DNA of 64,000 nucleotides from assembly GCF_044704955.1 (NCBI RefSeq), contig NC_091995.1, positions 13,516,001 to 13,580,000 of the forward strand, written 5' to 3'. The translations under genes were made by a program, and so were the position numbers. The notes under the pieces were generated by a model, which was not told the origin of the DNA, searched no databases, and saw nothing but the letters and a program-made list of their open reading frames with translations. Origin of the DNA: Pristiophorus japonicus. Its lineage: Eukaryota. This document shows, piece by piece, positions 7,496 through 59,207 of this stretch (within the stretch, counting starts at the first letter, position 1; each line of letters opens with the position of its first letter).

Positions 7496-7958
7496 TTCTC
7501 TCTGAAGACTTATTCTGGGGTAAAATTCCAGTTAGAAGATGTAGAAATAATGGGATTGAAATTGGACATAAGTGGCAGATGCAAAACAGACAGTATCGCA
7601 TCAATCGCTCATTATACACCCCAGTCCCGTTCAATAGCTTCACTAGCATGGATTGTCAGGCGTGTGGTATAATGGGTGGCGAATGAGACATAAAAGTGAA
7701 ATGATCAACGTGAGCAATGGGCTTTCGGGCAGAATATTGGAGGCAAAACACTGAAATCATTTACGAAACAGATGGATGCCATCAAGACGACTGGACAAGT
7801 TATTTCTGGATGGGTGAGGCCAATCTTTCTTCATACATGTCTATCTTAATCATATGTAACAAGATAGATTTCTTTCAGAAATCAATATTTTGAAATGCAG
7901 TATAGGAGTAATTTGAGACATGGTCAAATTTGTAAAATTGTAATCATAATAAGTGTAG

Positions 7959-10900
7959 CCCTTAAAGGGACCCTGATATGGAGAGACCATCTTCAGCGAT
8001 GGCGGGGCCAACAAAGACCTATTATTGCTCGCGCGGCAGCCAAGGCCACGGCTGTGGCTCCTGCTGCCCAGTCACCATTCAGGCATAACTAAAAAAAAGA
8101 ATGGGGTCAAGAGCTACACTCACCCCAACATGATCATCGAGGAGTGTGTGAAGGCAATGGCTGAGGTTGCCGGCCCCTCGGGAAAGCGGAGTTCTTCCTG
8201 AGGTCGGTGTGGGAGGTATCCCTGGCCCTGATAGTAAGGGGCTCACGGTGGGCGGGACCTTCCTGCCGGCGCATCGTCTCGAGGCCACCGCGCCGAGGAT
8301 CGTTATCTCAAACGTCCCGCCTTTTGTTCCCAGTGAGCTCCTCCTCCCCCACCTACGTCAACTGGGGGAGGTGAGGTCGGGGATAAATCCGATTCCGCTC
8401 GGCTTCAGGGAGGCCAGCCTCCATCAGGTGTTCTCCTTCCGCCACCAGCTTTTTGGTCAACTGGCACGGGATGCGGTAACGGAAGGGGCCTTTAAAGTGC
8501 TCCACGAGGGGACAGCCTACTGCGTCCTCTGGACGTCGGACGGTGCCACGCCTGCAAGGAGGTGGAGCATGTCCGCAAGAACAGCCCTGCCTTAGAAGCC
8601 GCAAAAACATCTAAAGCAGCCGAGGCTGGTGCCGACGCCATTCCTCCCCAGTTACCATCCGTGCCATAGATGCACGGGTGTCGTCGGGGGACCAATGTCA
8701 TCACGGCCTCCTGCGGGGGTGGGGGGGGGCTGGGAAGGAAAGAGAGGGAGAGCGTCTGCGCGGAAGGAAGGCACGGCATAAGAAAAAAACACCTGAAGGC
8801 TAGTCCCCTCAGTGAGCCAAACTGCCCCATCACTACTCTCGGCCCCAACACACCACCGGCAAGCACGGAGCATTTCGTGCCCGAGACCACAACTGCTCCT
8901 GTGGATGGTTGGATGGCCGCAGTCGGGCTCGGGCACGGGAAAGAAACACAGATGGAGGGAGTAGAGGTGGATGCAGACATGGAGGTTCCCCTGCCTCCGT
9001 GTCCCTCCGGACACAAAAAGGAGGCGCCAATCCGGGGAAACGGAGGAGGACCAAGGTCCCTCCGTGCGGGAGGAGTTGATGCCAGGCGCGGGTCCGTCAC
9101 CCACCAATCGGTCCCAACGTGCGTCGTGGGGGCGGGGGGGGGGGGGGGGGGGAGGTCTGTCCCTTGGGAGGATGAGACAGCCAAGGCTGTCCAGCTTGAC
9201 CTTCCCGGGGAGGGGGGGGGGGGGGGCGAGAAGACCTGCCTGTTGCGGGGGCCGCTAAGAGGACATCGCCGCCAGGTCGAGCGTCCCGAGGACTCAGGTA
9301 GGCGAGGCTGGAGAGGCCGAGTCCACCCAATCAAACCAGGATCTGTTCGACCCGGTCGAAAACACTGCGCAAGAACCCCCCGCCCACTGGGTCAGAGGGC
9401 GAGGAACCCTATCTCCATCCCGAACGTTGACGCCGGGTGTGTTGGAGGAATTGGAGAGGTTTTTCGGCCCGGTTTCTCCATGCAGCCTGGTGCCTGGGGT
9501 CCCCCGTCCATTGCCGCTTCCCGACCGGGCATTCCAGGAGGAGCCCAGGGAGGGACTCCTTTGCCGTCGATCCTGGGGTTGGGATCGTGACAGAGGTAGG
9601 GCTGGATGGTGCGGCCGGGGCTGTTCGCCGCACCCTGTGTGGTCGACGGACTGGCCGCTAGTGGTGACCTCCTGGGAGGAAGACAGGGGCTCGGTGGTGG
9701 ACACGGGAGGGGATTTAGAGATCCATCGCCAGTGAGCCGGTGGATCTCCTCGCGCCTGCCGCTGAGTCCCCCCTCATTCCTGCCAAGGAACTCCGGGACT
9801 TTATGGCAGAATGCCAGGGTTGCCGAGGTAAAGTCCAGCTGGCGTTGATCATGTCAGTCTTCACCGCCTTCAAAATCATGGGCCCGGACAGGGCCTTGTC
9901 CCAAAAAGACGCCGGCTCAAAACGTTCCTTGCTAGGTTGCTGACGGAGTGGAGGTCATCATACAAATCTGCTCCCTATCCACAGTAAGGTTAATTCGAGG
10001 TTGCACTATGCTCATCATGAAGATAACCATAAGCCAGCCTCAACATTAACAGCGGCAGAGAGGCAGACCGCAGATTTAAGAACCTTTCGCTCCCAAGGGA
10101 GGGGAAATATGCGGTGTTCTTCCTGCAAGAATCCTACACCGTTCCGGGAGAAGAGGCCACGTGGCTCCTGGAATGGCAAGGAGAGGTCCGCATGAGCCAC
10201 CTCACCGCCACTTCTTGTGGGGTGGCTATCTTGCCGGCCCCACATTTTCAGCTGGAGATCTTGTGTGTCAAGGAGCCTGAACCAGGCCGCTTGCTCAATG
10301 TCACTGTTCGCCTGGGGGGGGGGGGAACGTACCACTCCATTTAGTAAACGTGTATGCCCCTCAGCCCAGTGCGCAGTAAGTGCGCTTCTTCAAAGAAGTA
10401 TCCACTCTATTAGGCACCATTGACGTCGGCAACTGCATTGTCCTCGGGAGGGATTTTAACTGCACCCTTGACGCGAGACACTGCTTCGGTGCCCGGCAGA
10501 GCATGGCTGCGATGGAGAAGTTGAGGGACCTGGTCGGGTCCTTCGACTTGGTGGGCATCTGGCGAAATATCCATCCCGACTCCAGCACCTTTACTTGGGT
10601 GAGGTCTAGAAACATAGAAAATAGGTGCAGGAGTAGGCCATTCGGCCCTTCGAGCCTGCACCGCCATTCAATGAGTTCATGGCTGAACATGCAACTTCAG
10701 TACCCCATTCCTGCTTTCTCGCCATACCCCTTGATCCCCCTAGTAGTGAGGACTACATCTAACTCCTTTTTGAATATATTTAGTGAATTGGCCTCAACAA
10801 CTTTCTGTGGTAGAGAATTCCACAGGTTCACCACTCTCCGGGTGAAGAAGTTTCTCCTCATCTCGGTCCTAAATGGCTTACCCCTCATCTGGAAGAGGAT

Positions 10901-13783
10901 GGTCCAGAATCGACCGCCTGTATATATCCCGGGCGTACGTCTCCTGTGTTCCGGCAGCTTCTATGCGGCCGGTGCCGTGCTTGGACCGCCACCTGGTGTG
11001 GGCGGAGCTTGCTTCGCTCCACGCATGGGTGAGGTCCGCGTACTGGCATTTTAACAACCTGTTGCTGGAGGACGAGCGGTTCCGGGATTTGTTCCGTCGA
11101 TTCTGGACCAACTGGAGAAGGAAGGTGGGGGGGGGGGGGGGGGGGGGAAGGGGGGGCTTCAGCTCCTTGAAGTTATGGTGGGGCGTACGCGAGGGGGTCG
11201 ACCAAGAGGCGGGAGGCCAGGGTGGGGGCGCCTGGAGAAGGAGGTGCTCGACCTGAAGACCCGTCTTGGTCAAGTCGTCGAGGACCTGGCCCTGCGGACG
11301 GAGCACAAAGAGAAGACCGCGCTGAAGGACCTGCAGCTTGTCGGGTCCAGAGGTGCGTTCGTGAGGTCACGCACCCGGTTCCTCTGGGACCTGGACCTCG
11401 GCTCTCCCCTTCTACTCGCTGGAAAAAAGATGGTGGGTCCGTAAGCAGCTCTTGACGTTGCTGGCCGACGACAGATCTCTGGTCCCGGATCCAGAGGGCA
11501 TCAGTAACAGAGCCCGAGACTATTAAGGGGATCTGTTCTCTCCGGATCCGTCCAGCGACGAAGCACGCAGAGTTTTGTGGGAGGGCCTGCCGAAGGTTGG
11601 CCCAGAAGCCGGCGAAAATTTGAACGCTCCACTAGGCTTGGCGGAGCGGACCGGTGCCCTTGACCAGCTTTCGAGGGGAAAGTCCTCTTCTAAACTCTGC
11701 ACGCTTTCAGGTTCGGGACACATTTCGTTGCCCGGATCTGACTTTTGTACGCTGCCGTGGAGCGTCTGATTAAGGTTAACGGGTCTTTGACGGCGCCCCT
11801 TTGCTTTGGGAGAGGGGTGTGCCAGGGATGCCCCCATGTTTGGCCAGTTATATACAGTATGCGTGGAGCCTTTCCTGCGCAAGAGGTTGACGGGACTGGC
11901 TCTGCAAGGGCCGGGCGTGGAGGTCATCTCGGCTTATGCCGATGACGTGCTCCCCATGGTCACGCATCCCCTTGACCTGCGAGTGCCAGAAGATTTATTC
12001 GGCCGCATCCTCCACCAGGATCAACTGGAAGAACTGGTGGGTCAGTGGCAGGTAGACTCCCTGCCGGAGGAGTTCCGGTCTTTTGCCTGGAGCACGACCC
12101 ATCTCCTCTATCTGGGAGACCACATTAGCTCTGCCGAGGAAGCCTGGCCGGCGAACTGGCAAGAGCTGGAGACCAAGGTCGCCGCTCGCCTAGGGCGCTG
12201 GACAGGACTGCTCGGAGTGTTGTCCTACAGGGGTCGAGCGCTAGTCATAAATCAGCTGGTGGCCGCTATTCTGTGGTCACATTGACCCCTCTCCCTGCGT
12301 TTGTCATCAAGATATAGAAGAAGCTGGTCGATTTCTTCTGGAACAGGAAGCACTGGGTCTCTGCTGCGGCTCGGAGTCTTCCGCTTAGGGAGGGCGGTCA
12401 GGCGTTGGCGTGCTTGAGCATCTGGGCTGCGACTTTCTGTCTTCAGACCCTGCAGAGATACCTGCACATCGAGCACCCTCCTAGATGGTGTATGCTAGTG
12501 ACGTATTTCTTCCGCCAGCAGTACTCCCTCATGTATGACATGCAGCTCCTGTTTGTAAACCTGGAGGCATCCGTCCAGGCACGGGGTCTTTTACCAGGAA
12601 CTCATCAGGGTCTGGAACAAAGTTGCCACCAAGCACAGTTCTTCCCCATCTGGAGTGGCGGCTGTCCTTCGGGAGCCAGTGCTCAGGAATCCGTACCTCC
12701 ATGAGCGCGGTTTTAGGCGTCAGGCGGACGAGAGTGCTGCGTTTGGCAAGGTGACCAGGGTCAGGGACCTGCTCGATGGCGGAGGAGCGGGCTGGATGGC
12801 GCCAGAGGAGTTGGCATGGAGCCTATCCTGGGCCGACGTCCAGCGTGCGGCCAATGCCATCGAGTCGCTAAAAACAGCACTCCATTAGGTGTGTCGAGGA
12901 TGCTCAAGCATGTGGGGCGATCCCGTCCAAACTAACCCCTGTCCGGACGGAATTCCTCTGGCGCCAAGCCCCAAAACTTCCCTCGGAAGCCGGCGCCTCA
13001 CAACTTGAGTTTCCTCCGGGAAATCCCCTCCGTGCCTTTCAGATCTGCACGGAGGAGATTCCTGTACGGGCTGCCCTTGCACACTCTCCACTTTGCCACC
13101 CTAGTCTGTCGTCCGGACACGCCATGGCGCACCATCTTGCCGTCCGGAGGGGGCGGCAGTCCCTAGTAGACTGCTCTCTACGCGGGAGTCCTCCCTTTAT
13201 TTATTGGGGACTTGGCCTGGAGGGTGTTGCATGGGGCAGTCCCGTGTAATGGTTTATGGATTCCCAGGCCGCATGTAATTTCTGCTGTCTGGAAGTGTCT
13301 GTGTTCCATATTTACATCGAATGTGTGAGGTTGAAGCCCCTATTCCATTATTTGAAGGGGCTGCTCCTCAAATTCTGGTTGCTCCTCAGTCCCACGCTCC
13401 TGATCTTTGGGCATCCTGTGTGTAGGGGAGCGGGCAGGTCGGAAGGCCTCCTCGTAGGACTGCTCCTGGGCATGGCTAAGGTGGCCATTAACTGGTCCAA
13501 GCAGCAGGCGGGCGAGCGGGTCGTTCAGCCCGACTGCCTGCCTCTCTTCCACGGTTAAGTTCAAGCCAGAGAGCGTCCCTGGAGATGGAGCATGTGGTGT
13601 CCATCAGTACGCTCGTGGCCTTCTGCGAGAGATAGGTGCTGGAGGGACTGGAGTGCATCATCACCCCCGGCAACCAAATTTTAATTTGATTTGTTTTACG
13701 TCCAAAGTTTAATTTGTGAATTTGTCAGTTCTAGTGCCCCCTTTTAAGAGGGGCACTTGATTTATAGCTTTACTTAAAATAGT
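7959..13783 (+). mobile_element. Near full-length degenerate Tx1-clade LINE (ORF1 + APE/RT/CCHC ORF2)
   Basis: ORF1 remnant RIVISNVPPFVPSELL; APE remnants FLQE, GRDFNC, SRIDRLY, YWHFNNLLL; RT motif SAYADDV; C-terminal ACNFC..E.VFHIYIEC; many frameshifts; flanked by TGTAG at 7954-7958 and 13784-13788. Confidence 0.9.
10606..10885 (-). mobile_element. CR1 3' fragment nested in the Tx1 endonuclease region
   Basis: RGKPFRTEMRRNFFTRRVVNLWNSLP plus tail ttttctatgtttcta; interrupts Tx1 between FTWVRS and SRIDRL. Confidence 0.88.
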
Positions 13784-14010
13784 TGTAGAGCTGTTGAGTG
13801 AGAGTGGCTTAGCTATCATGTGATCTTCACAAGACTAAATAAAATCCCAGCCAGTTGGGTTCAGGGAATCCACGATGTAGCAGGGGGTTGTGAGCCTGAT
13901 GGATGAACTGGTAATGTGTAGTGTGATTGTTAAACCTTTTGCTGATAAACCAACTTGTTCTTAATAGCGATGTGTTGTTATGAATTCTTAAGCAAAGGAC
14001 CCATGAGCAA
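13784..14010 (+). repeat. LTR-like repeat interrupted by the Tx1 (left stub 7939-7958)
   Basis: Rejoined sequence begins TGTAAT and has AATAAAA and ATAAAC boxes; first about 30 nt recur at 48939; identity as an LTR is inference. Confidence 0.45.
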
Positions 14011-14937
14011 ACGATACAAAGATGGGAGGAAAAGCAATGTGTGAGGAGGATGCAAAAAACCTGCAAAAGAACATAGACAGGCTAAGTGAGTGGGCAAAAA
14101 ATTTGGTAGATGGAGTATAATGTTGGAAAGTGTGAGGTCATTCACTTTGGCAGAAAATAAATCAAAGAGGTTATTATTTAAATGGAGAAAAATTGCAAAG
14201 TGCTGCAGTATAGCAGGACTGGGGGTACTTGTGCATGAAACACAAAAGGTTAGTATGCAGGTACAGCAAGTGATCAGGAAGGCCAATGGAATCTTGGCCT
14301 TTATTGCAATGGAAATGGAGTATAAAAAAAAGGGAAGTCTTGCTACAGTTATACAGGGTATTGATGAGGCCTACCTGGAATACTGTGTACAGTTTTGGTT
14401 TCCATATTTAAGAAAGCATATACTTGCTTTGGAGGCAGTTCAGAGGAGGTTCACTCGGTTGATTCCAGAGATGAGGGAGTTGATTTATGAGGAAAGGTTG
14501 AGAAAGTTGGGCCTCTACTCATTGGAATTCAGAAGAATGAGAGGTAGTCTTATCGAAACGTATAAGATTATGAGGAGGCTTGACAAGTTGGATGCAGAGA
14601 GGATGTTTCCACTGATAGGGGAGACTAGAACTAGGGGGCATAATCTTTGAATAAGGGGCCGCCCATTTAAAACTGAGATGACAACTGATGATTTGTCAGA
14701 GGATTGTAAATCTGTGGAATTTGCTAATTCAGAGAGCTGTAGAAGCCGGGACATTGAATAAATTTAAGACAGAAATTGACAGTTTCTTAACCAATAAGGG
14801 ACTAAGGGGTTATGTGGAGCGGGCAGGGAAAGTGGACTTGAGTCCATGATCGGATCAGCCATGATCATATTAAATGGCGGAACAGGCTCGAAGGGCCTTA
14901 TGGCCTACTCCTGCTCCTATTTCTTATGTTCTTATGA
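14011..14937 (+). mobile_element. CR1 3' fragment
   Basis: LEYCVQFW, VQRRFTRLIP, LGLYSLEFRRMRG; tail ttcttatgttcttatg. Confidence 0.9.
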
Positions 14938-15234
14938 AGAAAATACATTACAGGACCTATGATGGCCGAAGCTTTCCATCACTGGAGTTTTCCTTGCATC
15001 ATGTCTGCGTCTATTGTAGACTAATTGAGAGACTGATTGCTAGGAATAGCCAACAGCTGCATTATTCCATGCGACTACCTAGAAGGTGAACTAGATGGAC
15101 CTTGGTCTTTTCTCATTTAGCAATTCCCATGTTCTTGATAGCATCAGCAAAACCAGTTAACCCCTACTTGCTCTTTTAATAGAAATACGTAGGAAGCAAG
15201 TTTTCAACTTCATGTTCAGGTTAGGTTTGTTGAG

Positions 15235-24231: not shown

Positions 24232-24934
24232 CCATAAGAACATAAGAATTAGGAACAGGAGTAGGCCATCTAGCCCCTCGAGCCTGCTCCGCCATTCAAC
24301 AAGATCATGGCTGATCTGGTCGTGGACTCAGCTCCACTTACCCGCCCTCTCCCCGTAACCCTTAATTCCCTTATTGCTTAAAAATCTATCTATCTTTGAC
24401 TTGAAAACATTCAATGAGCTAGCCTCAACTGCTTCCTTGGGCAGAGAATTCCACAGATTCACAACCCTCTGGGAGAAGAAATTCTTTCTCAACTCGGTTT
24501 TAAATTGGCTCCTCCGTATTTTGAGGCTGTGCCCCCTAGTTCTAGTCTCCCCCACCAATGGAAACAACCTCTCTGCCTCAATCTTGTCTATCCCTTTAAT
24601 GATTTTAAATGTTTCTATAAGATCACCCCTCATCCTTCTGAACTCCAAGGAGTAAAGACCCAGTCTACTCAATCTATCATCATAAGTTAACCCCTTCATT
24701 TCTCGAATCAGCCTAGTGAATCGTCTCTGTACCCCTTCCAAAGCTAGTATATGCTTCCTTAAGTAAGGTGACCAAAACTGCACGCAGTACTCCAGGTGCG
24801 GCCTTACCAATACCTTATGCAGTTGCAGCAACACCTCCCTGCTTTTGTACTCCATCCCTTTCGCAATGAAGGCCAACATTCCATTTGCCTTCCTGATTAC
24901 CTGCTGCACCTGCAAACTAACCTTTTGGGATTCA
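24232..24934 (-). mobile_element. CR1 LINE, 3' part (host of the Tx1 array)
   Basis: ESQKVSLQVQQVIRKANGMLAFI...RPHLEYCVQFWSP...VVNLWNSLP; tail ttcttatgttcttatg. Confidence 0.92.
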
Positions 24935-26059
24935 GACACGCTGGCGCGGCGCCTAAATTCTGCCAACGTCCGCCACACGGCCGATGCTAAAAACAGCTCA
25001 GGGCCCTGACTCCGTTAGGTGCATCGAGGAGGCTCAAGCACGTGGGGAGATCCCGTCCGAACTGACCTCCGTCCGGACGGAATTCCTCATCGACGCCAAA
25101 CCCCGGAACCTCCCTCGGGGGCCGGCGCCTCACAACTTGAGCCGCCTCGGGGAAATCCCCTCCGTGCCTTTCAGTTCCGCGCAGAGGGGTTTCCTGTACG
25201 GGCTGCTCCTGCACACTCAACTTTGCCATCCGCGCCTGCCGTCCGGACACGCCATGGCGTACCATCTTGCCGTCCGGAGGAGGCGGGGGTCTCCGATGGA
25301 GGGCACTCTACGCAGGGGTCCTCCCACTATTCATCGGGAACTTGGCCTGGAGGGTGGTGCACGGAGCAGTGCCGTGCAACAAATTTTTAAGCCGGTTCAC
25401 GGACTCCCAGGCCGCCTGCAATTTCTGCGGTCTGGAGGAGTCCGTGTTCCATGTTTTTATTGAGTGCACGAGGTTGCAGCCCCTGTTCCATTATTTGAAG
25501 GGGCTGCTCCTGAAATTCTGGCTGCACTTCAGTCCCACTCTCCTGATCTTTGGGCACCCTGTGCGCAGGGGAGCGGGTAGGTCCGAAGGCCTCCTCGTAG
25601 GACTGCTCTTGGGCACGGCCAAGGGTGCCATCAGCCGGTCCAGGCAGCGGGCGGTCGAGGGGGTCGTTCAACCTGACTGCCTGCCTCTCTTCCGCTCTTA
25701 CATCCGGTCCAGGGTGTCCTTGGAGATGGAGCACGCGGTGTCCACCAGTACGCTCGCGGCCTTCCGCGAGAGGTGGGCACCGGAGGGACTGGAGTGCATC
25801 ATCACGCCCGGCAACCAAATTTTAATTTGATTTTACGTTTTAAAGTTTAATTTGTTTTAATTGCCGGTGTTTTTAGTGTCCCCTTCCCTTTTATAGGGGG
25901 CACTGGGGAAAAATTGTGATTTTAGTGCCCAAAAAAAAAACGAAAAACAAAAAAAAAACAAAAAAAGGAAAAAAAGGGCCTTGTAAATGTCTGGTGTGTC
26001 ACCCAGGTCGGGTGGCATGGTTTAATGTTTTATGTTTTTGCAGGTAGACTCAAAGAGTT
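24935..26059 (+). mobile_element. Tx1 5'-truncated copy 1 (stacked array)
   Basis: zf-RVT/CCHC C-terminus ACNFCGLEESVFHVFIEC...CIITPGNQILI*, 3'UTR ending AAAAGAGT. Confidence 0.92.
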
Positions 26060-26063
26060 TCAG

Positions 26064-27154
26064 ACACGCTGGCGCGGCGCCTAAATTCTGCCAACGTCCG
26101 CCACACGGCCGATGCTAAAAACAGCTCTGGGCCCTGACTCCGTTAGGTGCATCGAGGAGGCTCAAGCACGTGGGGAGATCCCGTCCGAACTGACCTCCGT
26201 CCGGACGGAATTCCTCATCGACGCCAAACCCCGGAACCTCCCTCGGGGGCCGGCGCCTCACAACTTGAGCCGCCTCGGGGAAATCCCCACCGTGCCTTTC
26301 AGTTCCGCGCAGAGGGGTTTCCTGTACGGGCTGCTCCTGCACACTCAACTTTGCCATCCGCGCCTGCCGTCCGGACACGCCATGGCGTACCATCTTGCCG
26401 TCCGGAGGAGGCGGGGGTCTCCGATGGAGGGCACTCTACGCAGGGGTCCTCCCACTATTTGTCGGGGACTTGGCCTGGAGGGTGGTGCACGGAGCAGTGC
26501 CGTACAATAAATTTTTAAGCCGGTTCACGGACTCCCAGGCCGCCTGCAACTTCTGCGGTCTGGAAGAGTCCGTGTTCCATGTTTTTATTGAGTGCACGAG
26601 GTTGCAGCCCCTGTTTTGTTATCTAAAGGGACTGCTCCAGAAATTCTGGCTGCACTTCAGTCCCACACTCCTGATCTTTGGGCACCCTGTGCGGAGGGGA
26701 GCGGGTAGGTCAGAGGGCCTCCTCGTAGGACTGCTCCTGGGCACGGCCAAGGGTGCCATCAGCCGGTCCAGGCAGCGGGCGGGTCGTTCAGCCAGACTGC
26801 CTGCCTCTCTTCTGCGCCTACATCCGGTCCAGGGTGTCCCTGGAGATGGAGCACGCGGTGTCCACCGGTACGCTCGCGGCCTTCCGCGAGAGGTGGGCAC
26901 CGGAGGGACTGGAGTGCATCATCACGCCCGGCAACCAAATTTTAATTTGATTTTATGTTTTTAAGTTAATTTGTTTTAATTGCCGGTGCTTTTAGTGTTC
27001 CCCTCTCCTTTTATAGGGGGCACTTGGAGAAAAAAATTTGATTCTGTGCCCAAAAAAACCCCCCCAAAAAATAAAAAAAGGGCCTTGTAAATGTTGGTGT
27101 TTCCCCCAGATCGGGGGGCACGGTTTAATGTTTTTTGTTTGCTCCTAAAAGAGT
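26064..27154 (+). mobile_element. Tx1 5'-truncated copy 2
   Basis: Same 5' breakpoint (GACACGCTGGCGCGG) as copy 1; ends AAAAGAGT. Confidence 0.92.
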
Positions 27155-27159
27155 TTTAT

Positions 27160-29041
27160 GCATCCTCCGCCAGAATCAACTGGGAGAAATGTTCCGGACT
27201 CCTGGTGGGTCAGTGGCGGGTGGACTCCCTGCCGGAGGAGCTCAGGCCTTTTGCCTGGACCACGACCCATCTCCTCTATCTGGGAGTCTACCTTTGCCCC
27301 GACGAGGAAGCCTGGCCGGCGAACTGGCAGGAGCTGGAGGCCAAGGTCGCCGCTCGCCTAGGGCGCTGGACAGGAGTGCTCCGAGGGCTGTCCTACAGGG
27401 GTCGAGCGCTAATCATAAACCAGCTGGTGGCCGCCATGTTGTGGTACCGGCTGGTCACTTTGACCCCTCCCCCTGCGTTTGTCGCCAAGATACAGAAGAA
27501 GCTGGTGGACTTCTTCTGGAACAACAGGAAGCACTGGGTCTCTGCCGCGGTCTTGAGTCTCCCGCTTGGGGAGGGCGGTCAGTCGTTGGTGTGAGTCAGC
27601 GCCCAGCTCGCGACTTTCCGTCTTCAGACCCTGCAGAGATACCTTTACGTTGAGCCCCCTCCTAAGTGGCGTGCTCTGGCGATGTATTTCTTCCGCCAGC
27701 AGCACGGCCTCAACTATGACACGCAGCTCCTGTTTGAGAGTGTGGGGGGCGTCAGGACCGCCCTCCGGGAGCTGCCTGTCTTTTACAAGGAACTCATCAG
27801 GGTCTGGAACAAAGTCTCCACCAAGCGCAACTCTCCACCGGCTGGAGTGGCGGCCGTCCTGCAGGAGCCGCTGCTCGGGAATCCGTACCTCCACGACCGA
27901 GGTTTTTGGTGGCGGTCGGACGAGGGGGCTGTGGCTGGTGAGGTGACCAGGGTCAGGGACCTGCTCGATGGCGGAGGAGCGGGCTGGATGGCGCCTAAAT
28001 TCTGCCAACGTCCGCCACGGGGCCGATGCCATCGAGTCGCTAAAAAGAGCTCTGGGCCCCGACTCCGTTAGGTGCATCGAGGAGGCTCAAGCACGTGGGG
28101 AGATCCCGTCCGAACTGACCCCCGTCCGGACGGAATTCCTCATCGGCGCCAAACCCCGGAACCTCCCTCGGGGGCCGGCGCCTCACAACTTGAGCCGCCT
28201 CGGGGAAATCCCCTCCGTGCCTTTCAGTTCCGAGCGGAGGGGTTTCCTGTACGGGCTGCTCCTGCACACTCTCAACTTTGCCATCCTCGCCTACTGTCCG
28301 GACATGCCATGGCGTACCATCTTGCCGTCCGGAGGAGGCAGGGGTCCCCGATGGAGGGCACTCTACGCAGGGGTCCTCGCACTATTTATCGGGGACTTGG
28401 CCTGGAGGGTGGTGCACGGAGCAGTGCCGTGCAATAAATTTTTAAGCCGGTTCACGGGATCCCAGGCCGCCTGCAATTTCTGCGGTCTGGAAGAGTCAGT
28501 GTTCCATGTTTTTATTGAGTGCATGAGGTTGCAGCCCCTGTTTTGTTATTTAAAGGGGCTGCTCCTGAAATTCTGGCTGCACTTCAGTCCCACACTCCTG
28601 ATCTTCGGGCATCCTATGCGGAGGGGAGCAGCTAAGGGTGCCATCAGCCGGTCCAGGCAGCGGGCGGTCGAGGGGGTCGTTCAGCCAGACTGCCTGTTTC
28701 TCTTCCGCGCATACATCCGGTCCAAGGTGTCCTTGGAGATGGAGCACGTGGTGTCCACCGGTACGCTCGCGGCCTTCCGCGAGAGGTGGGCACCGGAGGG
28801 ACTGGAGTGCATCATCACGCCCGGCAACCAAATTTTAATTTGATTTTATGTTTTTAAGTTAATTTGTTTTAATTGCCGGTGCTTTTAGTGTCCCCCTTCC
28901 CTTTTATAGGGGGCACTTGGAGAAAAAATTCGATTCTGTGCCCAAACCCCCTACCCCCCCAAAAAAGGGCATTGTAAATGTTGGTGTTTCCCCCAGATCG
29001 GGGGGCACGGTTTAATGTTTTTTGTTTGCTCCTAAAAGAGT
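27160..29041 (+). mobile_element. Tx1 5'-truncated copy 3 (longer)
   Basis: ASSARINWEKC, YLGVYL, LSYRGRALIINQL, LPLGEGG post-RT motifs through to the C-terminus; ends AAAAGAGT. Confidence 0.92.
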
Positions 29042-30720
29042 TTCATGCACAAGGACCCCCAGGTCCCTCTGCACCACAGCATGTTGTAATTTCTCCCCAT
29101 TCAAATAATATTCCCTTTTACTGTTTTTTTTCCCCCCAAGGTGGATGACCTCACACTTTCCGACATTGTATTCCATCTGCCAAACCTTAGCCCATTCGCT
29201 TAACCTATCCAAATCTCCTTGTAGCCTCTGAGTCCTCTACACAACCCGCTTTCCCACTAATCTTAATGTCATCTGCAAATTTTGTTGCACTACACTCTGT
29301 CCCCTCTTCCAGGTCATCTATGTATATTGTAAACAGTTGTGGTCCCAGCACCGATCCCTGTGGCACACCACTAACCACTGATTTCCAACCGGAAAAGGAC
29401 CCATTTATCCCGACTCTCTGCTTTCTGTTCGCCAGCCAATTCTCTATCCATGCTAATACATTTCCTCTGACTCCGCGTACCTTTATCTTCTGCAGTAACC
29501 TTTTGTGTGGCACCTTATCAAATGCCTTTTGGAAATCTAAATACACCACATCCATCGGTACACCTCTATCCACCATGCTTGTTATATCCTCAAAGAATTC
29601 CAGTAAGTTAGTTAAACATGATTTCCCTTTCATGAATCCATGCTGTGTCTGCTTGATTGCACTATTCCTATCCAGATGTCCCGCTATTTCTTCCTTAATG
29701 ATAGCTTCAAGCATTTTCCCCACTACAGATGTTAAACTAACCGGCCTATAGTTACCTGCCTTTTGCCTGCCCCCTTTTTTAAACAGAGGCGTTACATTAG
29801 CTGCTCTCCAATCCGCTGGTACCTCCCCAGAGTCCAGAGAATTTTGATAGATTATAACAAATGCTATAACTTCCGCCATCTCTTTTAATACCCTGGGATG
29901 CATTTCATCAGGACCAGGGGACTTGTCTACCTTCAATCCCATTAGTCTGTCCAGCTCTACCTCCCTAGTGATAATGATCATCTCAAGGTCCTCCCTTCCC
30001 ACATTCCTATGACCAGCAATTTTTGGCATGGTTTTTGTGTCTTCCACTGTGAAGACCGAAGCAAAATAATTGTTTAAGGTCTCAGCCATTTCCACATTTC
30101 CCATTATTAAATCCCCCTTTTCATCTTCTAAGGGACCAACATTTACTTTAGTCACTCTTTTCCATTTTATATATCTGTAAAAGCTTTTACTATCTGTTTT
30201 TATGTTTTGCGCAAGTTTACCTTCGTAATCTATCTTCCCTTTCTTTATTGCTTTTTTAGTCATTCTTTGCTGTTGCTTAAAATTTTCCCAATCCTCTAGT
30301 TTCCCACTAACCTTGGCCACCTTATACGCATTGGTCTTTGATTTGATACTTTCCTTTATTTCCTTGGTTATCCACAGCTGGTTATCACTTCTCTTGCCGC
30401 CCTTCTTTTTCACTGGAATATATTTTTGTTGCGCATTATGAAAGAGCTCCTTAAAAGTCCTCCACTGTTCCTCAATTGTGCCACCGTTTAGTCCTTGTTT
30501 TCAGTCTACTTTAGCCAACTCTGCCCTCATCCCACTGTAGTCCCCTTTGTTTAAGCATAGTACGCTTGTTTCTGACACAACTTCCTCATCCTCAATCTGT
30601 ATTACAAATTCAACCATATTGTGATCACTCATTCCGAGAGGATCTTTTACGAGGAGATCGTTTATTTTTCCTGTCTCGTTACACAGGACCAGATCCAAAA
30701 TGGCTTGCTCCCTTGTAGGC
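29042..30720 (-). mobile_element. CR1 LINE, 5' part (APE end + RT) of the same element
   Basis: SDHNMV, KSPGPD, NYRPVSLTS, YLDFQKAFDKV, GVPQGSVLGP, KFADD; LGVLVHE joins ESQKVS across the Tx1 array. Confidence 0.92.
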
Positions 30721-31557: not shown

Positions 31558-31799
31558 TCCCGCAAGCAAGCCCAACCCCACGACCCAAAGCCCATGACAA
31601 CCCCCCTCCCCCAAGGTCTTAACACCACCTTCAAGCCCGCGGTCCGACGCGACCCCACCCCCCCCCCACAAGCCCGCGACCCTCTTCCCCCCCCAAGCCA
31701 GTGACCCTATTGCCCCAAGCCAGTGACCCTATTGCCCCAAGCCCACCCTGCAGACGTCAGGCCCAACCACCCTTGACAATCTGGTCTCCAGGGAAGTAC

Positions 31800-31912
31800 C
31801 TGCAAAAGTAATGCTCGCAGTCCAGCTCCACGGGGTCGGTGAAGATCGCCAGGCACAGAGGACAGGTCAGGTCCACGACGAGTTGTGAAATACCGTCTCC
31901 CAACGCCGCCAT
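31800..31912 (-). CDS. TRIM (RBCC) E3 ubiquitin ligase, coding exon 1 (N-terminal half of RING)
   Basis: ATG at 31912 in context AAGATGGCG; encodes MAALGDGISQLVVDLTCPLCLAIFTDPVELDCEHYFC+AG (C3HC4 RING start); donor AG|GTACTT; 113 nt, phase 2, compatible with the next exon. Confidence 0.9.
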
Positions 31913-32350
31913 CTTCGCACCAGCCGCGGAGTGGTGGGGGGAGGGGGAGCGGCAGCAGCCAATCACAGCGCCACACCCGCACGGTACGTGTACGGGGCAG
32001 CCAGCCCCGCAGCACACAAGCAGGGCGCCGGTCAAGGCCGCGACAGCCAATCATGGCGCCGAGCCGCCGATGATGGCAGCCAATCAACGCGCCGTTCCGG
32101 GCCGCGGTAGCCAATTACAGACTTTGGCCAATCCAAATCGTCAATCCTTTTATCCAATCAGTCTCCGCCTGGATAGCTTTGCCCACAGTGCGGCCCACAG
32201 CTCACAACCGTGCTCCATGCTGGCCAATCAAAACAGCGACTGGGAGCGCCTTACACGTCACGTGGTGCGTGAGCCAATCAGCGGTACGGGTAAGACACAG
32301 CGATAAAGAGGACGAAAAGGAGCGTCCGTCTGGCTAGCCAATCACAACGC
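31913..32350 (-). promoter_or_regulatory. TRIM CpG-rich, TATA-less promoter/5'UTR with nine CCAAT boxes
   Basis: CCAAT on + strand at 31959, 32047, 32080, 32111, 32128, 32154, 32224, 32274, 32338; CACGTG E-box near 32259; YY1-type AAGATGGCGGC overlapping the ATG. Confidence 0.75.
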
Positions 32351-32619: not shown

Positions 32620-33445
32620 AATCATCATCCTCGAGCGAGGATGACTTGCTTCCACGAGAGTTCACTGATGGTTCAATGTCAGACCCGATGTTCCAGTCCT
32701 GACACTCCATTTGAGGGGGTGGAAGATGCCTGTGCGTGGATTTTTGTTAACGTGTGGTGACCATTGGCACATCAGCCACCACACGGGCTTGACAGAACTA
32801 GGCTTTTATCCAGTCGCAAGGGTTGAACCAGGTCGACTGGCAACCTGCTCTGCTGCATGAACCCAGTGCGTACACATATCGCAGCGTGGGCTGGCTCGTA
32901 CTGCTCCTGGGCTCTTCTGGGCCCCATACCCTCATTCGCCGCACCTCTGCCACATTGTTCCAGGGCCTGGCACTCCAGGTCTATTTAGAGCCCGGTCCTG
33001 CGGTGCTGTTCTCACACAGGTCAGTGCAGCCCACGATGTTCCAGGGCTCGGTGCTCCAGCTCTATTTAGAGCCCTGACCTGCGGTGCTGTTCTCACACAG
33101 GTCAGTGCAGCCCACGATGTTCCAGGGCTCAGTGCTCCAGCTCTATTTAGAGCCCCGACCTGCGGTGCTGTTCTCACACAGGTCAGTGCAGCCCACGATG
33201 TTCCAGGGCCCAGTGCTCCAGCTCTATTTAGAGCCCCGACCTGCGGTGCTGTTCTCACACAGGTCAGTGCAGCCCACGATGTTCCAGGGCCCAGTGCTCC
33301 AGCTCTATTTAGAGCCCCGACCTGCGGTGCTGTTCTCACACAGGTCATTGAGGCCTATGATGTTCCAGGGCCCGGCGCTCCAGCTCTATTTATAGCCTTG
33401 ACTGCAGTGGTGTTCTCACATAGGTTGGGGCGGCCAACGATGTTC
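32620..33445 (-). mobile_element. RTE-tailed element, copy C, with an 81-bp tandem array
   Basis: Tail atcatcatcctcgagcgaggatgacttgcttccac; about six 81-bp units at 32955-33445. Confidence 0.8.
32955..33445. repeat. 81-bp minisatellite, about six copies
   Basis: Unit ccagggcccagtgctccagctctatttagagccccgacctgcggtgctgttctcacacaggtcagtgcagcccacgatgtt; appears as 27-aa repeats in spurious ORFs. Confidence 0.92.
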
Positions 33446-34561
33446 CATGATTAACAAACCAAATAATATATAACTTGTGAAAGCCAAACACTGTGGATGC
33501 TGGAAATCTGAAATGAAAGCATAAAATGCTGGTAAACACTTGGGCTTTTGAGGTGTAGCTACTGTAGGAAACGCGGCAGCCAATTTGCGCACGGCAAGCT
33601 CACACAAACAGCAATGTGATAATGACCAGATCCTCTGATAAATAAGAGATAAATATTAGCCAAGTCACAGGGAGAACTCCAAATCTCTTCTCCGATACAT
33701 ATAATCCAGGTTGACACTCCAGTGCCAGTACTGAGGGAGTGCTGCCGCACTGTCGGAGGTGCCACCTTTCGAATAAGACATTAAATCGAGTCCCCATCTG
33801 CCCTTAGATGGAAAAGATCCAATGGCACTATATCGAAGAAGAGCCGGGTCCCGCTTAAGTCATATTATATTCCATTTGTGGACTTGCAACACCTGATGCG
33901 CCTTAAATTATCTGCAAATCTTCTGTTTAAATGTAAGTGGAAATCGAGATATTTGTATTTCAATAAAATCTACATTTGATTACAACATTCTTAATTTCCA
34001 TCAAATGTGTGTAAAGTATTTATATAGTGATACATTTAGTATATATAGAGAGATTCATATATATATATTTGTAGAGAGAGATAACTGGAAAATATGTCTC
34101 TAATTGCTAAGAGTTTAAATCCAGAATCATTGAACTGCACCATTTGGGATGGATGCTCAAACCACGCTAAACTAGCTAATCTTGGCGGAGGCAGCAATTC
34201 GGGTGCAACAATCGACCCCGACACTCTTAGGTTAGGAAGAGGAATGTCTCCACTCCCGCTTACAAATCAGCTGATACGTCACAGGGATGAGAATTTTAAA
34301 ATTGAGGCATTGCCAGACCGGGAGCGCACCTAGGTCAGCAAGCACAGGAGGCCATGTGGAGGGGACTTACTGCGAGTTAGGACATGGGCAGCAAGGATTT
34401 GGGATGATCTCCAGTTTAACATATACGGAAAAAAATCATCCCAAGGCGCTTCGCTGAGGCGTCATCAATAAAAATAAAGAATAAAACAAATCAGGGATTG
34501 AATTGAAACTGAATATTGTCTTTGGGCCAAAGCCACGCCATTGATGAGCTGCTCAGAGCAG

Positions 34562-35279: not shown

Positions 35280-35510
35280 ACAACTTTCTGTCTCTTTCCA
35301 GAAGCTTCTCCCCCTGACCCGCACCTTCGAGAAGCCTCTCGGACTCTCGGCCGTCTCGCCGACTCACCGCGCTCTGATTGGCCGCCGCCTCGGAACCGCC
35401 CCCGACCGTCGGCGGTGAGCTCACCGAGCCGCGTCCTGATTGGTCCGCTCCGCCGTCAATCAGCCAGCCAACACCGCCCACCCCGCGGCGCTGAGGCAAT
35501 ATAAAAGGGC
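35280..35510 (+). promoter_or_regulatory. HSP70-1 promoter: HSEs, two inverted CCAAT boxes, TATA
   Basis: Perfect HSE tTTCcaGAAgcTTCt 35295-35309; second cTTCgaGAAgcCTC from 35325; CTGATTGG twice; TATAAAA 35500-35506. Confidence 0.9.
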
Positions 35511-35663
35511 AGAGCTCAGCGTCTCAGAATCACAATCCACTTGGAGAAGGCACCACTTGACAGCGGGTTGATTGCAGGCAGAGGACGCAACAGCAGCCAG
35601 CAGCCAGCAGCCAGCAGCAAGCAGACAAGGCTGAATCCAGGTGACCCTAACCGAGAGAGAAAG

Positions 35664-37589
35664 ATGCCTGCAACCAAGGGAACAGCCATTGGCATCGACC
35701 TGGGCACCACCTATTCCTGCGTGGGGGTCTTCCAGCACGGCAAAGTCGAGATTATTGCCAACGACCAGGGCAACCGCACCACCCCCAGTTACGTGGCCTT
35801 CAATGACACCGAGAGGCTCATCGGGGACGCTGCCAAGAACCAGGTGGCTCTCAACCCACCCAACACCGTCTTTGATGCCAAGAGGCTCATCGGGAGGAAG
35901 TTTGACGACCCAGTGGTCCAGTCCGACATGAAGCACTGGCCCTTCCAGGTGGTGAGCGATGTGGGAAAGCCCAAGGTGAAGGTTGAGTACAAGGGTGAGG
36001 ATAAAACCTTTTACCCCGAGGAAATCTCTTCCATGGTGCTGACCAAGATGAAGGAAACAGCTGAGGCTTACCTGGGCCACACTGTCACCAATGCTGTTGT
36101 CACCGTGCCTGCTTACTTCAATGATTCCCAACGCCAGGCAACCAAAGATGCTGGTGTGATCGCTGGTCTGAATGTCCTGCGGGTCATCAATGAGCCGACG
36201 GCAGCTGCCATTGCCTACGGCCTAGACAAGAGGGGCACAGGCGAGCACAATGTTCTAATCTTTGATTTGGGTGGTGGTACTTTTGACGTCTCTATTCTCA
36301 CCATTGATGATGGTATCTTTGAAGTGAAATCAACGGCTGGTGACACCCACTTGGGAGGAGAGGACTTTGATAATCGCATGGTCAATCACTTCATTGAGGA
36401 GTTCAAGCGTAAATACAAGAAGAATATCAGTCAGAACAAGAGGGCGGTCAGGAGGCTGAGGACAGCCTGTGAGAGAGCAAAGAGAACCCTGTCTTCCAGC
36501 ACCCAAGCCAGCATCGAGATTGACTCTCTGTTTGAAGGCATAGACTTCTACACCTCCATCACCAGGGCTCGGTTTGAGGAGCTGAATTCTGACCTGTTCA
36601 GAGGCACTCTGGAGCCAGTGGAGAAAGCTCTGAGAGATGCCAAGTTGGGCAAATTGCAGATCCATGACATTGTCTTGGTCGGGGGCTCCACCCGTATCCC
36701 CAAGATCCAGAAACTGCTACAAGATTTCTTCAATGGCAGGGAGCTGAACAAAAGCATCAACCCTGATGAGGCTGTGGCCTATGGGGCAGCTGTACAAGCG
36801 GCTATTCTGATGGGGGACAAGTCTGAGAATGTTCAGGATATGCTTCTCCTGGATGTCGCTGCTCTGTCTCTGGGTCTCGAGACAGCAGGAGGGGTCATGA
36901 CCACACTCATCAAGCGGAACACCACCATTCCCAACAAGCAGACCCAGCTCTTCAGCACCTACTCTGACAACCAGCCCGGTGTCCTTATTCAGGTCTATGA
37001 AGGGGAGAGAGCCATGACCAAGGACAACAACATTCTGGGCAAATTCGAGTTGAGTGGCCTCCCTCCTGCCCCACGTGGTGTGCCACAGATTGAGGTCACC
37101 TTCGATATTGATGCCAATGGCATCTTGAACGTGTCTGCTGTGGACAAGAGCACAGGCAAAACCAACAAGATCACCATCACCAATGACAAGGGCCGGCTGA
37201 GTCAGGAGGAAATTGAGAGAATGCTGCAGGATGCAGAAAAGTACAAAACTGAGGATGAAGGCCAGCGGCAGAAGATCGCAGCTAAGAACTCCCTGGAGTC
37301 GTACGCCTTCAACATGAAGAGCGCGGTGGAGGATGAGAACGTGAGCAGTAAGATCAGTGAGGAAGACCAGAAGAAGATCATTGACCAGTGCAACCAGGCA
37401 ATATTGTGGCTGGAGAAGAATCAGACGGCAGAGAAAGAGGAGTTTGAGCACAAGCAGAAAGAGTTGGAAAAACTCTGCCAGCCCATCATCGCCAACCTGT
37501 ACCAAGGAGGGGCAGCAGGGGCATCTTGCAGAGCCCAGGCTGGACAAGGCACTTCCTCCACTGGACCAACCGTGGAGGAGGTGGATTAA
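35664..37589 (+). CDS. hsp70: Heat shock 70 kDa protein, copy 1 (cytosolic, intronless, 641 aa)
   Basis: Signatures [36 protein letters not shown]; C-terminal GPTVEEVD; ATG in aagATG context downstream of TATA (the ORF-track start at 35541 is a TTG in the 5'UTR). Confidence 0.97.
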
Positions 37590-37922
37590 TAGACTGTGAA
37601 GAACTTGGGTTTAATGCACTGTGTTGGTGAACATTGTTCAATTGTATCTATACATAGTCTATAAATGGCTACCTCCTCATTCTTATGATTCTTTCATGAT
37701 CAGTAGATCAAGTGGGATTGTTGTACTTTGACCTCTTAACTCATCTTTGCCGCTTAAATTGGGGTGAAAAGTGAATATTTTGTTATACAATGCAGATGTA
37801 CTCTAGTTTCTATGTTACTATACCAGCTATCACGTGAGCTTTTGAACTGTATTCTGTTTTTTTTTAAAGATGTATGCTGCAATATATAATTGTTCTCAGG
37901 TGGATTCTGAAATTATGTTTTT

Positions 37923-44725: not shown

Positions 44726-44864
44726 GGCGGAGCTGAGAGTCTCAGAGTCACAATTACTTGGAGACGGCACCAGTTGGCAGCGGGTTATTGCAGGCGTAGG
44801 ACTCGAAAGTAGCAGAAGTAGACAAGGCTGAATCTAGGTGACGCTTACAGACAGAGAGAGAAAG

Positions 44865-46790
44865 ATGCCTGCAGCCAAGGGAACAGCCATTGGCATCGAC
44901 CTGGGCACCACCTACTCCTGCGTGGGGGTCTTCCAGCACGGCAAGGTCGAGATCATCGCCAACGACCAGGGCAACCGCACCACCCCCAGCTACGTGGCCT
45001 TCAATGACACTGAGCGGCTCATCGGGGACGCCGCCAAGAACCAGGTGGCTCTCAACCCACCTAACACTGTCTTTGATGCCAAGAGGCTCATCGGGAGGAA
45101 GTTTGATGACCCAGTGGTACAGTCCGACATGAAGCACTGGCCCTTCGAGGTGGTGAGCGATGCGGGAAAGCCCAAGGTGAAGGTTGAGTACAAGGGTGAG
45201 GATAAAACCTTTTACCCCGAGGAAATCTCTTCCATGGTGCTGACCAAGATGAAGGAAACAGCTGAGGCTTACCTGGGCCACACTGTCATCAATGCTGTTG
45301 TCACCGTGCCTGCTTACTTCAATGATTCCCAACGCCAGGCAACCAAAGACGCTGGTGTGATCGCTGGTCTGAATGTCCTGCGGGTCATCAATGAGCCGAC
45401 GGCAGCTGCCATTGCCTACGGCCTAGACAAGAGGGGCACAGGCGAGCACAATGTTCTCATCTTTGACTTGGGTGGTGGTACCTTCGATGTCTCTATTCTC
45501 ACCATTGATGATGGTATCTTTGAAGTGAAATCGACGGCTGGTGACACCCACTTGGGAGGAGAGGACTTTGATAATCGCATGGTCAATCACTTCATTGAGG
45601 AGTTCAAGCGTAAATACAAGAAGAATATCAGTCAGAACAAGAGGGCGGTCAGGAGGCTGAGGACAGCCTGTGAGAGAGCAAAGAGAACCCTGTCTTCCAG
45701 CACCCAAGCCAGCATCGAGATTGACTCTCTGTTTGAAGGCATAGACTTCTACACCTCCATCACCAGGGCTCGGTTTGAGGAGCTGAATTCTGACCTGTTC
45801 AGAGGCACACTGGAGCCAGTGGAGAAAGCTCTGAGAGACGCCAAGTTGGACAAATTGCAGATCCATGATATTGTTTTGGTCGGGGGCTCCACCCGTATCC
45901 CCAAGATCCAGAAACTGCTACAAGATTTCTTCAATGACAGGGAGTTGAACAAAAGCATCAACCCTGACGAGGCTGTGGCCTATGGGGCAGCTGTACAAGC
46001 TGCTATTCTGATGGGGGACAAGTCTGAGAATGTTCAGGATATGCTTCTCCTGGATGTCGCTGCTCTGTCTCTGGGTCTCGAGACAGCAGGAGGGGTCATG
46101 ACCACACTCATCAAGCGGAACACCACCATTCCCAGCAAACAGACCCAGATCTTCAGCACCTACTCTGACAACCAGCCCGGTGTCCTTATTCAGGTCTATG
46201 AAGGGGAGAGAGCCATGACCAAGGACAACAACCTTCTAGGCAAATTCGAGTTGAGTGGCCTCCCTCCTGCCCCTCGTGGTGTGCCACAGATTGAGGTCAC
46301 CTTCGATATTGATGCCAATGGCATCCTGAATGTTTCTGCTGCTGACAAGAGCACCGGCAAAACCAACAAGATCACCATCACCAATGACAAGGGCCGGCTG
46401 AGTCAGGAGGAAATTGAGAGAATGCTGCAGGATGCAGAAAAGTACAAAACTGAGGATGAAGGCCAGCGGCAGAAAATCGCAACCAAGAACTCCCTGGAGT
46501 CATACGCCTTCAATATGAAGAGCGCGGTGGAGGATGAGAACGTGAGCAGTAAGATCAGTGAGGAAGACCAGAAGAAGATCATTGACCAGTGCAACCAGGC
46601 AATATTGTGGCTGGAGAAGAATCAGACGGCAGAGAAGGAGGAGTTTGAGCACAAGCAGAAAGAGTTGGAAAAACTCTGCCAACCCATCATCGCCAACCTG
46701 TACCAAGGAGGGGCAGCAGGGGCATCTTGCAGAGCCCAGGCTGGACAAGGCACTTCCTCCACTGGACCAACCGTGGAGGAGGTGGATTAA
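44865..46790 (+). CDS. hsp70: Heat shock 70 kDa protein, copy 2 (641 aa; recent duplicate of copy 1)
   Basis: Same signatures; C-terminal lid/tail reads identical to copy 1; ends GPTVEEVD. Confidence 0.97.
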
Positions 46791-48761: not shown

Positions 48762-48938
48762 GTCCGCTCGCGGCCTTCCGCGAGAGGTGGGTACCGGAGG
48801 GACTGGAGTGCATCATCACCCCCGGCAACCAAATTTTAATTTGATTTAAGTCACAGTTAAAGTTTAAAATGTTAATTTGTTGGTTCCAGTGCCCTTGCCA
48901 AAATGGGGGCATTTGATTTTACATTCTACCAAAATAGT
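48762..48938 (+). mobile_element. Tx1 extreme 3' fragment
   Basis: LAAFRERWVPEGLECIITPGNQILI* plus 3'UTR hairpin, ending AAAATAGT. Confidence 0.85.
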
Positions 48939-50497: not shown

Positions 50498-50598
50498 ATC
50501 CGCTGGGTGGCGAAGACTGGGGACTGAAGCAGCGGCATCTTTGGTGACTGGGGCAGTTGTCACACACGGCCACGTTAAAAAAATATATGTACAAAATC

Positions 50599-52509: not shown

Positions 52510-52782
52510 ATGCCATCCCGAACTTTCATTTCTCCCCTCCCTCCCTCCCCCCTAGTGTAAGTAACTTTTATGCGCGTTGTCATGACAAAATACTTTAGTT
52601 GCCGATTGGACAGATGATATATTGCATTAGTTGGGTACTTGGCTGTGAAGTATCCCAATTGGTTTGGGGGAAATGGTTTTGTTTGAGTGAACTTTGCATG
52701 TTTTTTTGTATCATGTTGAACAGCTATCTTACTTTTCTGGTTACATCTGATTGCCCGAGTGTGTGTGTATATTCAAGGGGCC

Positions 52783-59095: not shown

Positions 59096-59207
59096 GATTG
59101 AGGCCAGAAGGAGCGGCAGAAGAGGATACAACGACCAGGCGGAGTCGCGCTGGTACGGTCCGGATTCCACAGCCCTAGTAGATCAATTTCAACTCGGTGA
59201 AAAAAGA

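Follow-up and report, generated by a model that had tools for sequence, protein, structure and literature searches.

Three copies of a Tx1-clade long interspersed nuclear element (LINE) were found stacked at one site of a CR1 LINE in a 64,000-nt stretch of the Pristiophorus japonicus genome (contig NC_091995.1, positions 13,516,001 to 13,580,000; the whole stretch is called the window in the following). The copies are 5′-truncated, lie head-to-tail on the plus strand and are oriented antisense within open reading frame 2 (ORF2) of the host CR1. Together with junctions found at other loci, the array is probably the product of a Tx1 lineage with site specificity, which would insert at one position of the CR1 ORF2 again and again and generate target duplications of up to about 15 bp. 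That a Tx1 lineage targets this site had been proposed from the DNA letters alone (the original prediction), and the proposal is now backed by nine joints from other loci and by three different templates in the local array.

The coordinates and junctions of the three copies were confirmed on the plus strand. Copy 1 (24933..26058, 1126 nt) has about 400 nt at its 5′ side in common with copy 2 and continues with a 3′ part of its own; the end of its ORF2 is open, and its match to zf-RVT (E 5.5e-6) lies just below the cut-off of Pfam. Copy 2 (26061..27154, 1094 nt) contains an ORF2 that is frameshifted by an 8-bp deletion, and its 3′ untranslated region (UTR) ends with CCTAAAAGAGT. Copy 3 (27160..29041, about 1880 nt) extends from the end of the reverse transcriptase (RT) domain to the 3′ end and has decayed by one stop codon and deletions of 20 and 42 bp. 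Its separate 5′ truncation and the absence of a terminal poly(A) from all three copies had both been predicted correctly. The predicted 3′ end of copy 1, AAAAGAGT, turned out to be wrong. The copy ends with CTCAAAGAGT, and its 3′ UTR is distinct from those of the other two copies, with differences at 33 of 201 aligned sites to copy 2 and at 36 of 197 to copy 3, plus indels. Three marks of target-primed insertion are present in the array, i.e., 5′ truncation, a fixed 3′ end, and target duplication.

In order, the junctions of the array read GGGA-TTCA/, /TTCA/, /TTTATGCA/, and /TTCATGCAC, the slashes being the borders of the Tx1 copies. The target motif TTCATGCACAAGGAC (29042..29056, plus strand) directly follows copy 3 and is the reverse complement of the CR1 codons V-L-V-H-E. 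The left copy of the duplicated target, TTCA (24931..24934, plus strand), corresponds to a duplication of 2–4 bp, its CA also being element sequence. Between copies 1 and 2, the spacer TTCA (26059..26062, plus strand) forms with the next bases TTCAGACAC, which is identical to the target at 7 of 9 positions. The spacer TTTATGCA between copies 2 and 3 (27155..27162, plus strand) is identical at 7 of 8 positions, and its GCA is also element sequence. Because the spacers partly overlap with the element by microhomology (CA in the case of copies 1 and 2, GCA in that of copy 3), the local target duplications comprise only 2–4 and 5–8 bp. Where copies 2 and 3 begin, 7 of 9 bases at the 5′ junction agree with the target in either case. 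The claim that the 3′ ends are followed by a target tetramer TTCA or a near-match held in that target sequence does follow. The tetramer was rejected as the target; it can be found 660 times in the window when both strands are counted and has no meaning by itself, and the target has a length of 9–15 nt. The 9-mer TTCATGCAC occurs twice in the window, each time within a CR1.

Judged by its sequence, the inserted element is closer to Xenopus Tx1 than to L1 and belongs to the Tx1 clade. Copy 3 matched the Xenopus Tx1 ORF2 with 42% identity over 365 amino acids (E 3e-64) and a fish L1 ORF2 with 25% (E 1.5e-6). For a natural frame of 143 amino acids of copy 3, the identities were 56% and 24%, respectively. 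In a short protein tree of 13 rows, copy 3 formed an unsupported fork with Xenopus Tx1, and no branch around it was well supported. Being 5′-truncated, the array copies keep only the RT end and the C-terminal zinc motif, and the array contains no endonuclease, nor does the rest of the window contain one of this subfamily. A sister Tx1 copy of near full length (about 7960–13783, plus strand; 78% identical) carries ORF1, APE and RT in a decayed state, aligns to Tx1 ORF2 residues 6 to 1212, and displays the complete layout. A second sister copy of the same lineage is located at 48760–48938 (plus strand).

The host CR1 lies on the minus strand. Its upstream ORF2 part (29042..30500, the upstream limit being approximate) contains the RT domain (RVT_1, E 4.5e-27) and 431 open codons at 29205–30500, and its 3′ part (24234..24930) contains the end of ORF2 from SQKVSLQ onward with 200 open codons, the 3′ UTR, and two TTCTTATG octamers at the tail. 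In this frame, DLGVLVHE stands on one side of the array and SQKVSLQ on the other, in agreement with the predicted split at VLVHE/SQKV. A database search for the read-through tail VLVHETLLGANKKH yielded two unrelated CR1 proteins, both candidates having an unbroken VLVHESQK; these uninterrupted proteins are no evidence for or against filled sites elsewhere. An ORF2 with RT and an octamer-repeat tail, both expected of a CR1, were thus found, and the host is a CR1 as far as its sequence can tell. This label is based on the octamer tail, on ORF2 motifs that we take to be those of CR1, and on the original prediction, rather than on an RT phylogeny with named CR1 families. The protein searches yielded no named CR1 protein, and cluster searches gave only clusters without a name. 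The 3′ UTR of a CR1 is expected to end in a hairpin and octamer repeats, and octamers of this kind are given as a CR1 feature in the available part of PMC4316615.

Assembled contigs of 4 of 13 listed runs (X1, X6, X9, and X10) were placed on positions 27157–29106, which comprise copy 3 and 65 nt of CR1. The run X1 is from the same organism as the window, and 44,123 of its contigs were placed. The empty site GGGA/TTCATGCAC was present in contigs of three of the four runs (X6, X9, and X10), and its best records differed at 0–1 of 65 nt, those of X10 at none. In X1, a CR1 variant TTTTGTGT/TTCATGCAC was found in 84 contigs. Because near-identical empty sites and variants recur in the contigs, the host CR1 is a young member of an abundant subfamily. 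Within the window, an empty site with a 12-mer of the target motif occurs in an uninterrupted CR1 that is 77% identical to the host (14228..14239, minus strand). The target motif had been thought to be conserved across CR1s, a view that was not borne out. Four CR1s of the window extend across the site; the motif is present in two of them (VLVHES/TQK), and the other two have VMVHQSMK and VRVYKSLK. The target is a motif of 9–15 nt of a CR1 subgroup, neither a tetramer nor a motif of all CR1s. That it serves as a safe harbour, as the original prediction proposed, would be one possible interpretation.

In X1, at least nine further joints between the CR1 motif and Tx1 were detected among the 12 listed of 29 joints with extra letters. 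They start at 29050–29056, and the lengths of the motif are 9, 9, 13, 13, 13, 14, 14, 14, and 15 nt. The entry points into Tx1 are all different (27895, 28174, 28341, 28551, 28634, 28642, 28782, 28789, and 29032), they are 10 to 1147 nt away from the 3′ end of the element, and they are preceded by 1–25 extra letters. None of the nine joints is a junction of the window array. Library chimeras are unlikely because the depth of the nine joints (8–33) is in the range of single deletion joints (mostly 7–10, up to 41). The exact probability that nine joints fall within 7 nt is 9e-8 for 65 positions and 1.3e-6 for 46 positions, calculated post hoc and for the listed joints only. Joints deeper in the CR1 are easier to detect, yet all nine lie in 7 nt of the 65 nt on offer, and a rough expectation for random insertion is 0.05–2 joints for 500–20,000 copies. 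At these joints, the flanks share the same CR1 motif and do not look random, in keeping with the preference of many, though not all, members of the Tx1 clade for a fixed target.

Further details of these joints concern the 3′ end of the element. In one joint, 14 nt of target are followed by an insert of just 10 nt from the extreme 3′ end (CTAAAAGAGT), and because it contains only the extreme end behind the target, the position of the 3′ end is fixed. The two types of 3′ UTR, that of copy 1 and that of copies 2 and 3, stop at one and the same base of the target. No side of the listed deletion joints has fewer than 21 letters, and therefore the joints with 9 nt of motif most likely include the 3′ end of the element and are tandem junctions like those in the window array. 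Scans of metagenome contigs with the pattern and with proteins and a scan of viral contigs revealed no relative with flanks.

The form of the nine joints, with the element end or CR1 followed by 9–15 nt of motif, few extra letters, and a new start, is also the form that template jumps would produce. Such jumps could make head-to-tail junctions if targeting were RNA-guided, i.e., if donor transcripts extended 9–15 nt into the CR1 flank and their tails annealed at loosely chosen nicks. The absence of poly(A) fits this idea, and so does the GT that precedes the motif in the commonest CR1 variant (84 contigs) as it does in the element's end. However, the decay is unequal among the local copies (see below), which speaks against a single event with jumps, and the local spacers have lengths of just 4 and 8 nt. 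Among 17 listed of 988 loose ends, none lies behind 29041–29056, a weak hint that the flanks continue into CR1, and the lack of a pile behind 29050–29056 in the same selection is a weak point against RNA guidance. In addition, the accessible text of PMC4494074 attributes the target choice of Tx1 mainly to the endonuclease. RNA-guided targeting is thus regarded as improbable.

Still less credit is given to the possibility that one old chance insertion spread together with its CR1 as a composite, either through CR1 retrotransposition or through segmental duplication, that later Tx1 copies homed to their own 3′ end, and that the CR1 was a passenger. Such a history would be compatible with visible joints that are best read as tandem, with the fact that joints with 9 nt of motif are undetectable without preceding element sequence, and with the abundance of CR1, which makes up 21.78% of the whale shark genome according to the available part of PMC8455134. 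It does not agree well with the 5′-most array copy, which adjoins native CR1, nor with a host CR1 that is near-identical to the abundant empty consensus; moreover, the same base was used by two UTR types, and the CR1 motif is retained in every listed joint of the tandem type.

A comparison of the array copies with one another indicates that they stem from three different templates and that duplication is limited to about 400 nt. A near-identical segment is shared by copies 1 and 2 (24933..25331 versus 26061–26459, plus strand), with 2 differences in 399 nt, common deletions of 11 bp and 2 bp, and 6 shared non-synonymous changes. Beyond this 5′ side, 26 of 491 positions differ, and the best breakpoint is near 25332 (permutation P = 0.006). 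Downstream of the common part, the differences between copies 1 and 2 amount to 23/482 and then, in the UTR, to 33/201; those between copies 2 and 3 along the length are 17/393, 21/440, and 13/197. Because all three 3′ parts differ by 4–7% or more, the array is not one insertion that was duplicated, and the predicted minimum of two independent integrations is confirmed by three distinct 3′ parts and by the 5′ end that is peculiar to copy 3. Two simple relationships were rejected, namely a simple duplication as the origin of copies 1 and 2 (26/491 differences past the breakpoint and another UTR) and copy 2 as the product of a recent conversion by copy 3 (4–7% difference throughout). The same 5′ end of copies 1 and 2, their 99.5% identity over 399 nt, and the common deletions might suggest local tandem duplication of a single insertion, or an assembly that merged haplotypes. 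But downstream of that segment, the copies are about 5% apart, the UTR of copy 1 and the 5′ end of copy 3 are different, and in view of the nine other junctions, duplication or gene conversion accounts only for the shared 400 nt. Local duplication is already largely refuted, and we regard both it and misassembly as very unlikely.

Decay was counted after the changes had been polarised with the sister copy as the outgroup. The segment shared by copies 1 and 2 has 6 non-synonymous and 0 synonymous changes as well as two frameshifts. The part that is specific for copy 1 has 4 synonymous and 2 non-synonymous changes in an open frame, and that of copy 2 has 3 synonymous and 4 non-synonymous changes and a frameshift. 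Copy 3 has 2 synonymous and 13 non-synonymous private changes in addition to deletions (versus 4 and 2 in copy 1, P = 0.03). Marks of decay number 8 in the shared 399 nt, compared with 2 in the 491 nt of copy 1 (P = 0.049) and 5 in those of copy 2 (P = 0.27). The likely order of insertion is copy 3, copy 2, and copy 1, and the aged 5′ segment would belong to copy 2. The complementary DNA (cDNA) of copy 1 may have annealed to copy 2 and been joined in this way, the alternative being a later gene conversion.

Several observations weigh against a lineage that is specific for the CR1 site. The statistics for the order of insertion are borderline (P = 0.049 and 0.03). None of the 15 listed (of 52) deletion joints is at the CR1 site, and the listing of joints with extra letters gives neither the kind nor the strand nor the sequence upstream of the motif. 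The nine joints are from one run of one sample, which is possibly the source of the window, and no Tx1-CR1 joint was present in the 12, 7, and 3 contigs of X6, X9, and X10, so there is no support across species. The local duplications of 2–8 bp are shorter than the 9–15 nt in the joints of X1. An unfilled CR1 site exists 10 kb from the array, and the window contains two relatives of the Tx1 copies (78% and 82–96% identical, with another 3′ UTR) that sit outside CR1. Lastly, the depth in X1 falls about tenfold in the UTR of the copy 3 type, and therefore this subfamily makes up only the smaller part of a larger family. The claim of a CR1 site holds only for a part of the Tx1 family.

We hypothesize that repeated insertion at the CR1 site proceeds as follows. 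The APE endonuclease would nick the sense strand of CR1 where the codon for E in VLVHE/S meets that for S/T (GTGCATGAA^TCCC); this position is deduced from the junction, and transcripts that ran into the flank would place it further along. The free 3′ end at the nick would prime reverse transcription from the 3′ end of the element (...AAAGAGU, without poly(A)), and a second cut 2–15 nt away would duplicate the start of TTCATGCACAAGGAC. The 5′ side could be joined via microhomology, extra letters, or long homology. The duplication would restore a usable target, so that later copies could stack at the same position. Copies 2 and 3 could be hit again because their 5′ junctions, with 7 of 9 bases as in the target, would have had native CR1 upstream. 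In the likely order of copy 3, copy 2, and copy 1, each copy would have been inserted at the 5′ junction of its predecessor, and annealing of the cDNA of copy 1 to the homologous adjacent copy 2 would have duplicated the first 400 nt of the latter.

The 3′ ends of array and sister copies were also folded in silico. A GUG(U)CCCC...GGGGCAC hairpin just past the ORF2 stop was predicted in 4 of 4 folded 3′ UTRs (25862–25925, 28874–28936, 13716–13783, and 48872–48938; z –0.8 to –3.8) and is a candidate for a recognition structure common to the array and sister lineages. A hairpin and a terminal 4-bp stem are similar in both UTR types of the array, with modest z-scores of –0.9 to –1.7.

Both sister copies end with AAAATAGT and are followed by a common sequence of about 31 nt that begins with TGTAGAGCTGTTGAGT and is not CR1; it represents a longer UTR or else another fixed target. 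TGTAG directly before the long sister copy (7954–7958) is possibly a duplication of 5 bp. A paralogous empty site was sought for the sister copy at 48.8 kb, and none was found, the paralogy stopping 170 nt short. The long copy is followed by a repeat-like sequence with TGTA...TACA ends that is split by a CR1 (13784–14012 and 14937–14952) and has no second copy in the window and no Rfam match. Its interpretation as a long terminal repeat (LTR) was rejected, there being no target duplication or second copy in support. The reverse nesting also occurs, with a CR1 3′ fragment (10607–10889) located where the long Tx1 copy encodes its endonuclease. The Rfam scan of the window yielded no family at gathering level and three chance-level matches after the sister copy. 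Two turtle gene models, P0005 and P0007, are close Tx1 relatives in which identical Tx1 segments recur several times (P0005 has 18 stretches, P0007 three pieces of endonuclease), possibly a sign of stacked Tx1 arrays in turtles.

The remainder of the window contains four intronless Hsp70 reading frames in tandem on the plus strand (35505–37590, 44838–46790, 50548–52510, and 59091–61127). Two of the Hsp70 proteins fall into 90% clusters with shark and ray proteins, and the sole named member of one cluster is from a sawshark. A frame on the minus strand (31707–32114) has a RING-like cysteine pattern (CPLC...CEHYFC) after MAALGDG and no Pfam match at 0.01. Tandem arrays are located at 32956–33447 (81-nt units, 6.1 copies) and 55267–55521 (79-nt units, 3.2 copies).

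A fixed site in the CR1 ORF2, if true, would add the most abundant shark repeat to the target classes of Tx1. The array and sister lineages provide a natural pair of closely related endonucleases with apparently different targets, which is useful for the study of a specificity switch, and thousands of near-target CR1 variants, filled and empty, would allow the recognition rule to be read from one assembly. A further-reaching version, in which one coding position of CR1, the dominant shark retrotransposon, harbours the majority of copies of these Tx1 subfamilies, always antisense and removing the C-terminal 200 residues of ORF2, is tentative and rather doubtful. If it were correct, this LINE would be the first one of a vertebrate that is known to aim at coding sequence of a different LINE clade; it could put young CR1 copies out of action and force change on codons that are hardly free to vary in CR1, and the sister lineage in the same window would have switched to another target.

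The nearest named protein relative is Tx1L of Xenopus laevis (YTX2_XENLA), with 56% identity over 143 amino acids, 42% over 365 amino acids, and the same domain order. Tx1L inserts into the non-autonomous piggyBac element Tx1D according to the available parts of PMC4494074 and PMC6719617, and the Tx1 case is repeated in those of PMC6719617 and PMC3747384. In both systems, the target is another mobile element; unlike in Tx1L, it is here a LINE from a different clade, whose coding sequence is hit in antisense orientation. Targets of Tx1 elements in print are Tx1D, U2, microsatellites, Mariner-N4, LTR retrotransposons, and Harbinger (Kojima 2015, PMC4494074, as far as accessible). Keno (U2 snRNA), Kibi, and Koshi (microsatellites) are likewise site-specific Tx1-clade LINEs of fishes and other animals (available part of PMC4494074). 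In contrast to these elements, with their RNA genes and simple repeats, the target here is CR1, and no Rfam family is present in the window. Zepp inserts into its own copies. Zepp and ZeppL, L1-type LINEs of green algae, also form local clusters (accessible part of bioRxiv 10.1101/2022.06.16.496473); theirs is self or same-clade clustering at centromeres and not insertion at a fixed site in a different LINE clade.

In the literature searched, which did not cover Kojima and Fujiwara 2004 and Repbase Reports, no Tx1 aimed at CR1 was found. The whale shark report notes Tx1, and its available part states no target (PMC8455134); the parts seen of PMC5035012 and PMC8869645 contain nothing relevant on Tx1 targets. 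Close parallels are the crocodilian Tx1 families, for which the accessible text of PMC4494074 describes insertion of Tx1-Mar families as well as SINEU-3 into Mariner-N4_AMi, of Tx1-8_Crp and Tx1-4_AMi into LTR retrotransposons, and of Tx1-9_AMi into Harbinger. Tandem copies of SINEU-3 sandwich a target duplication of 16 bp and were read as sequential insertions. As in the present array, a fixed site in an abundant transposon is used, and tandem insertions have the target duplication between them; antisense insertion occurs at one of the two Mariner sites there and in CR1 here. In contrast, the same text names no CR1 or LINE target and mentions CR1 twice, never as a target. Taken together, Tx1 elements that aim at other transposons of the DNA and LTR types and stack with target duplications are already in print, which limits the surprise, and the new feature is most likely the coding sequence of CR1 as the target.

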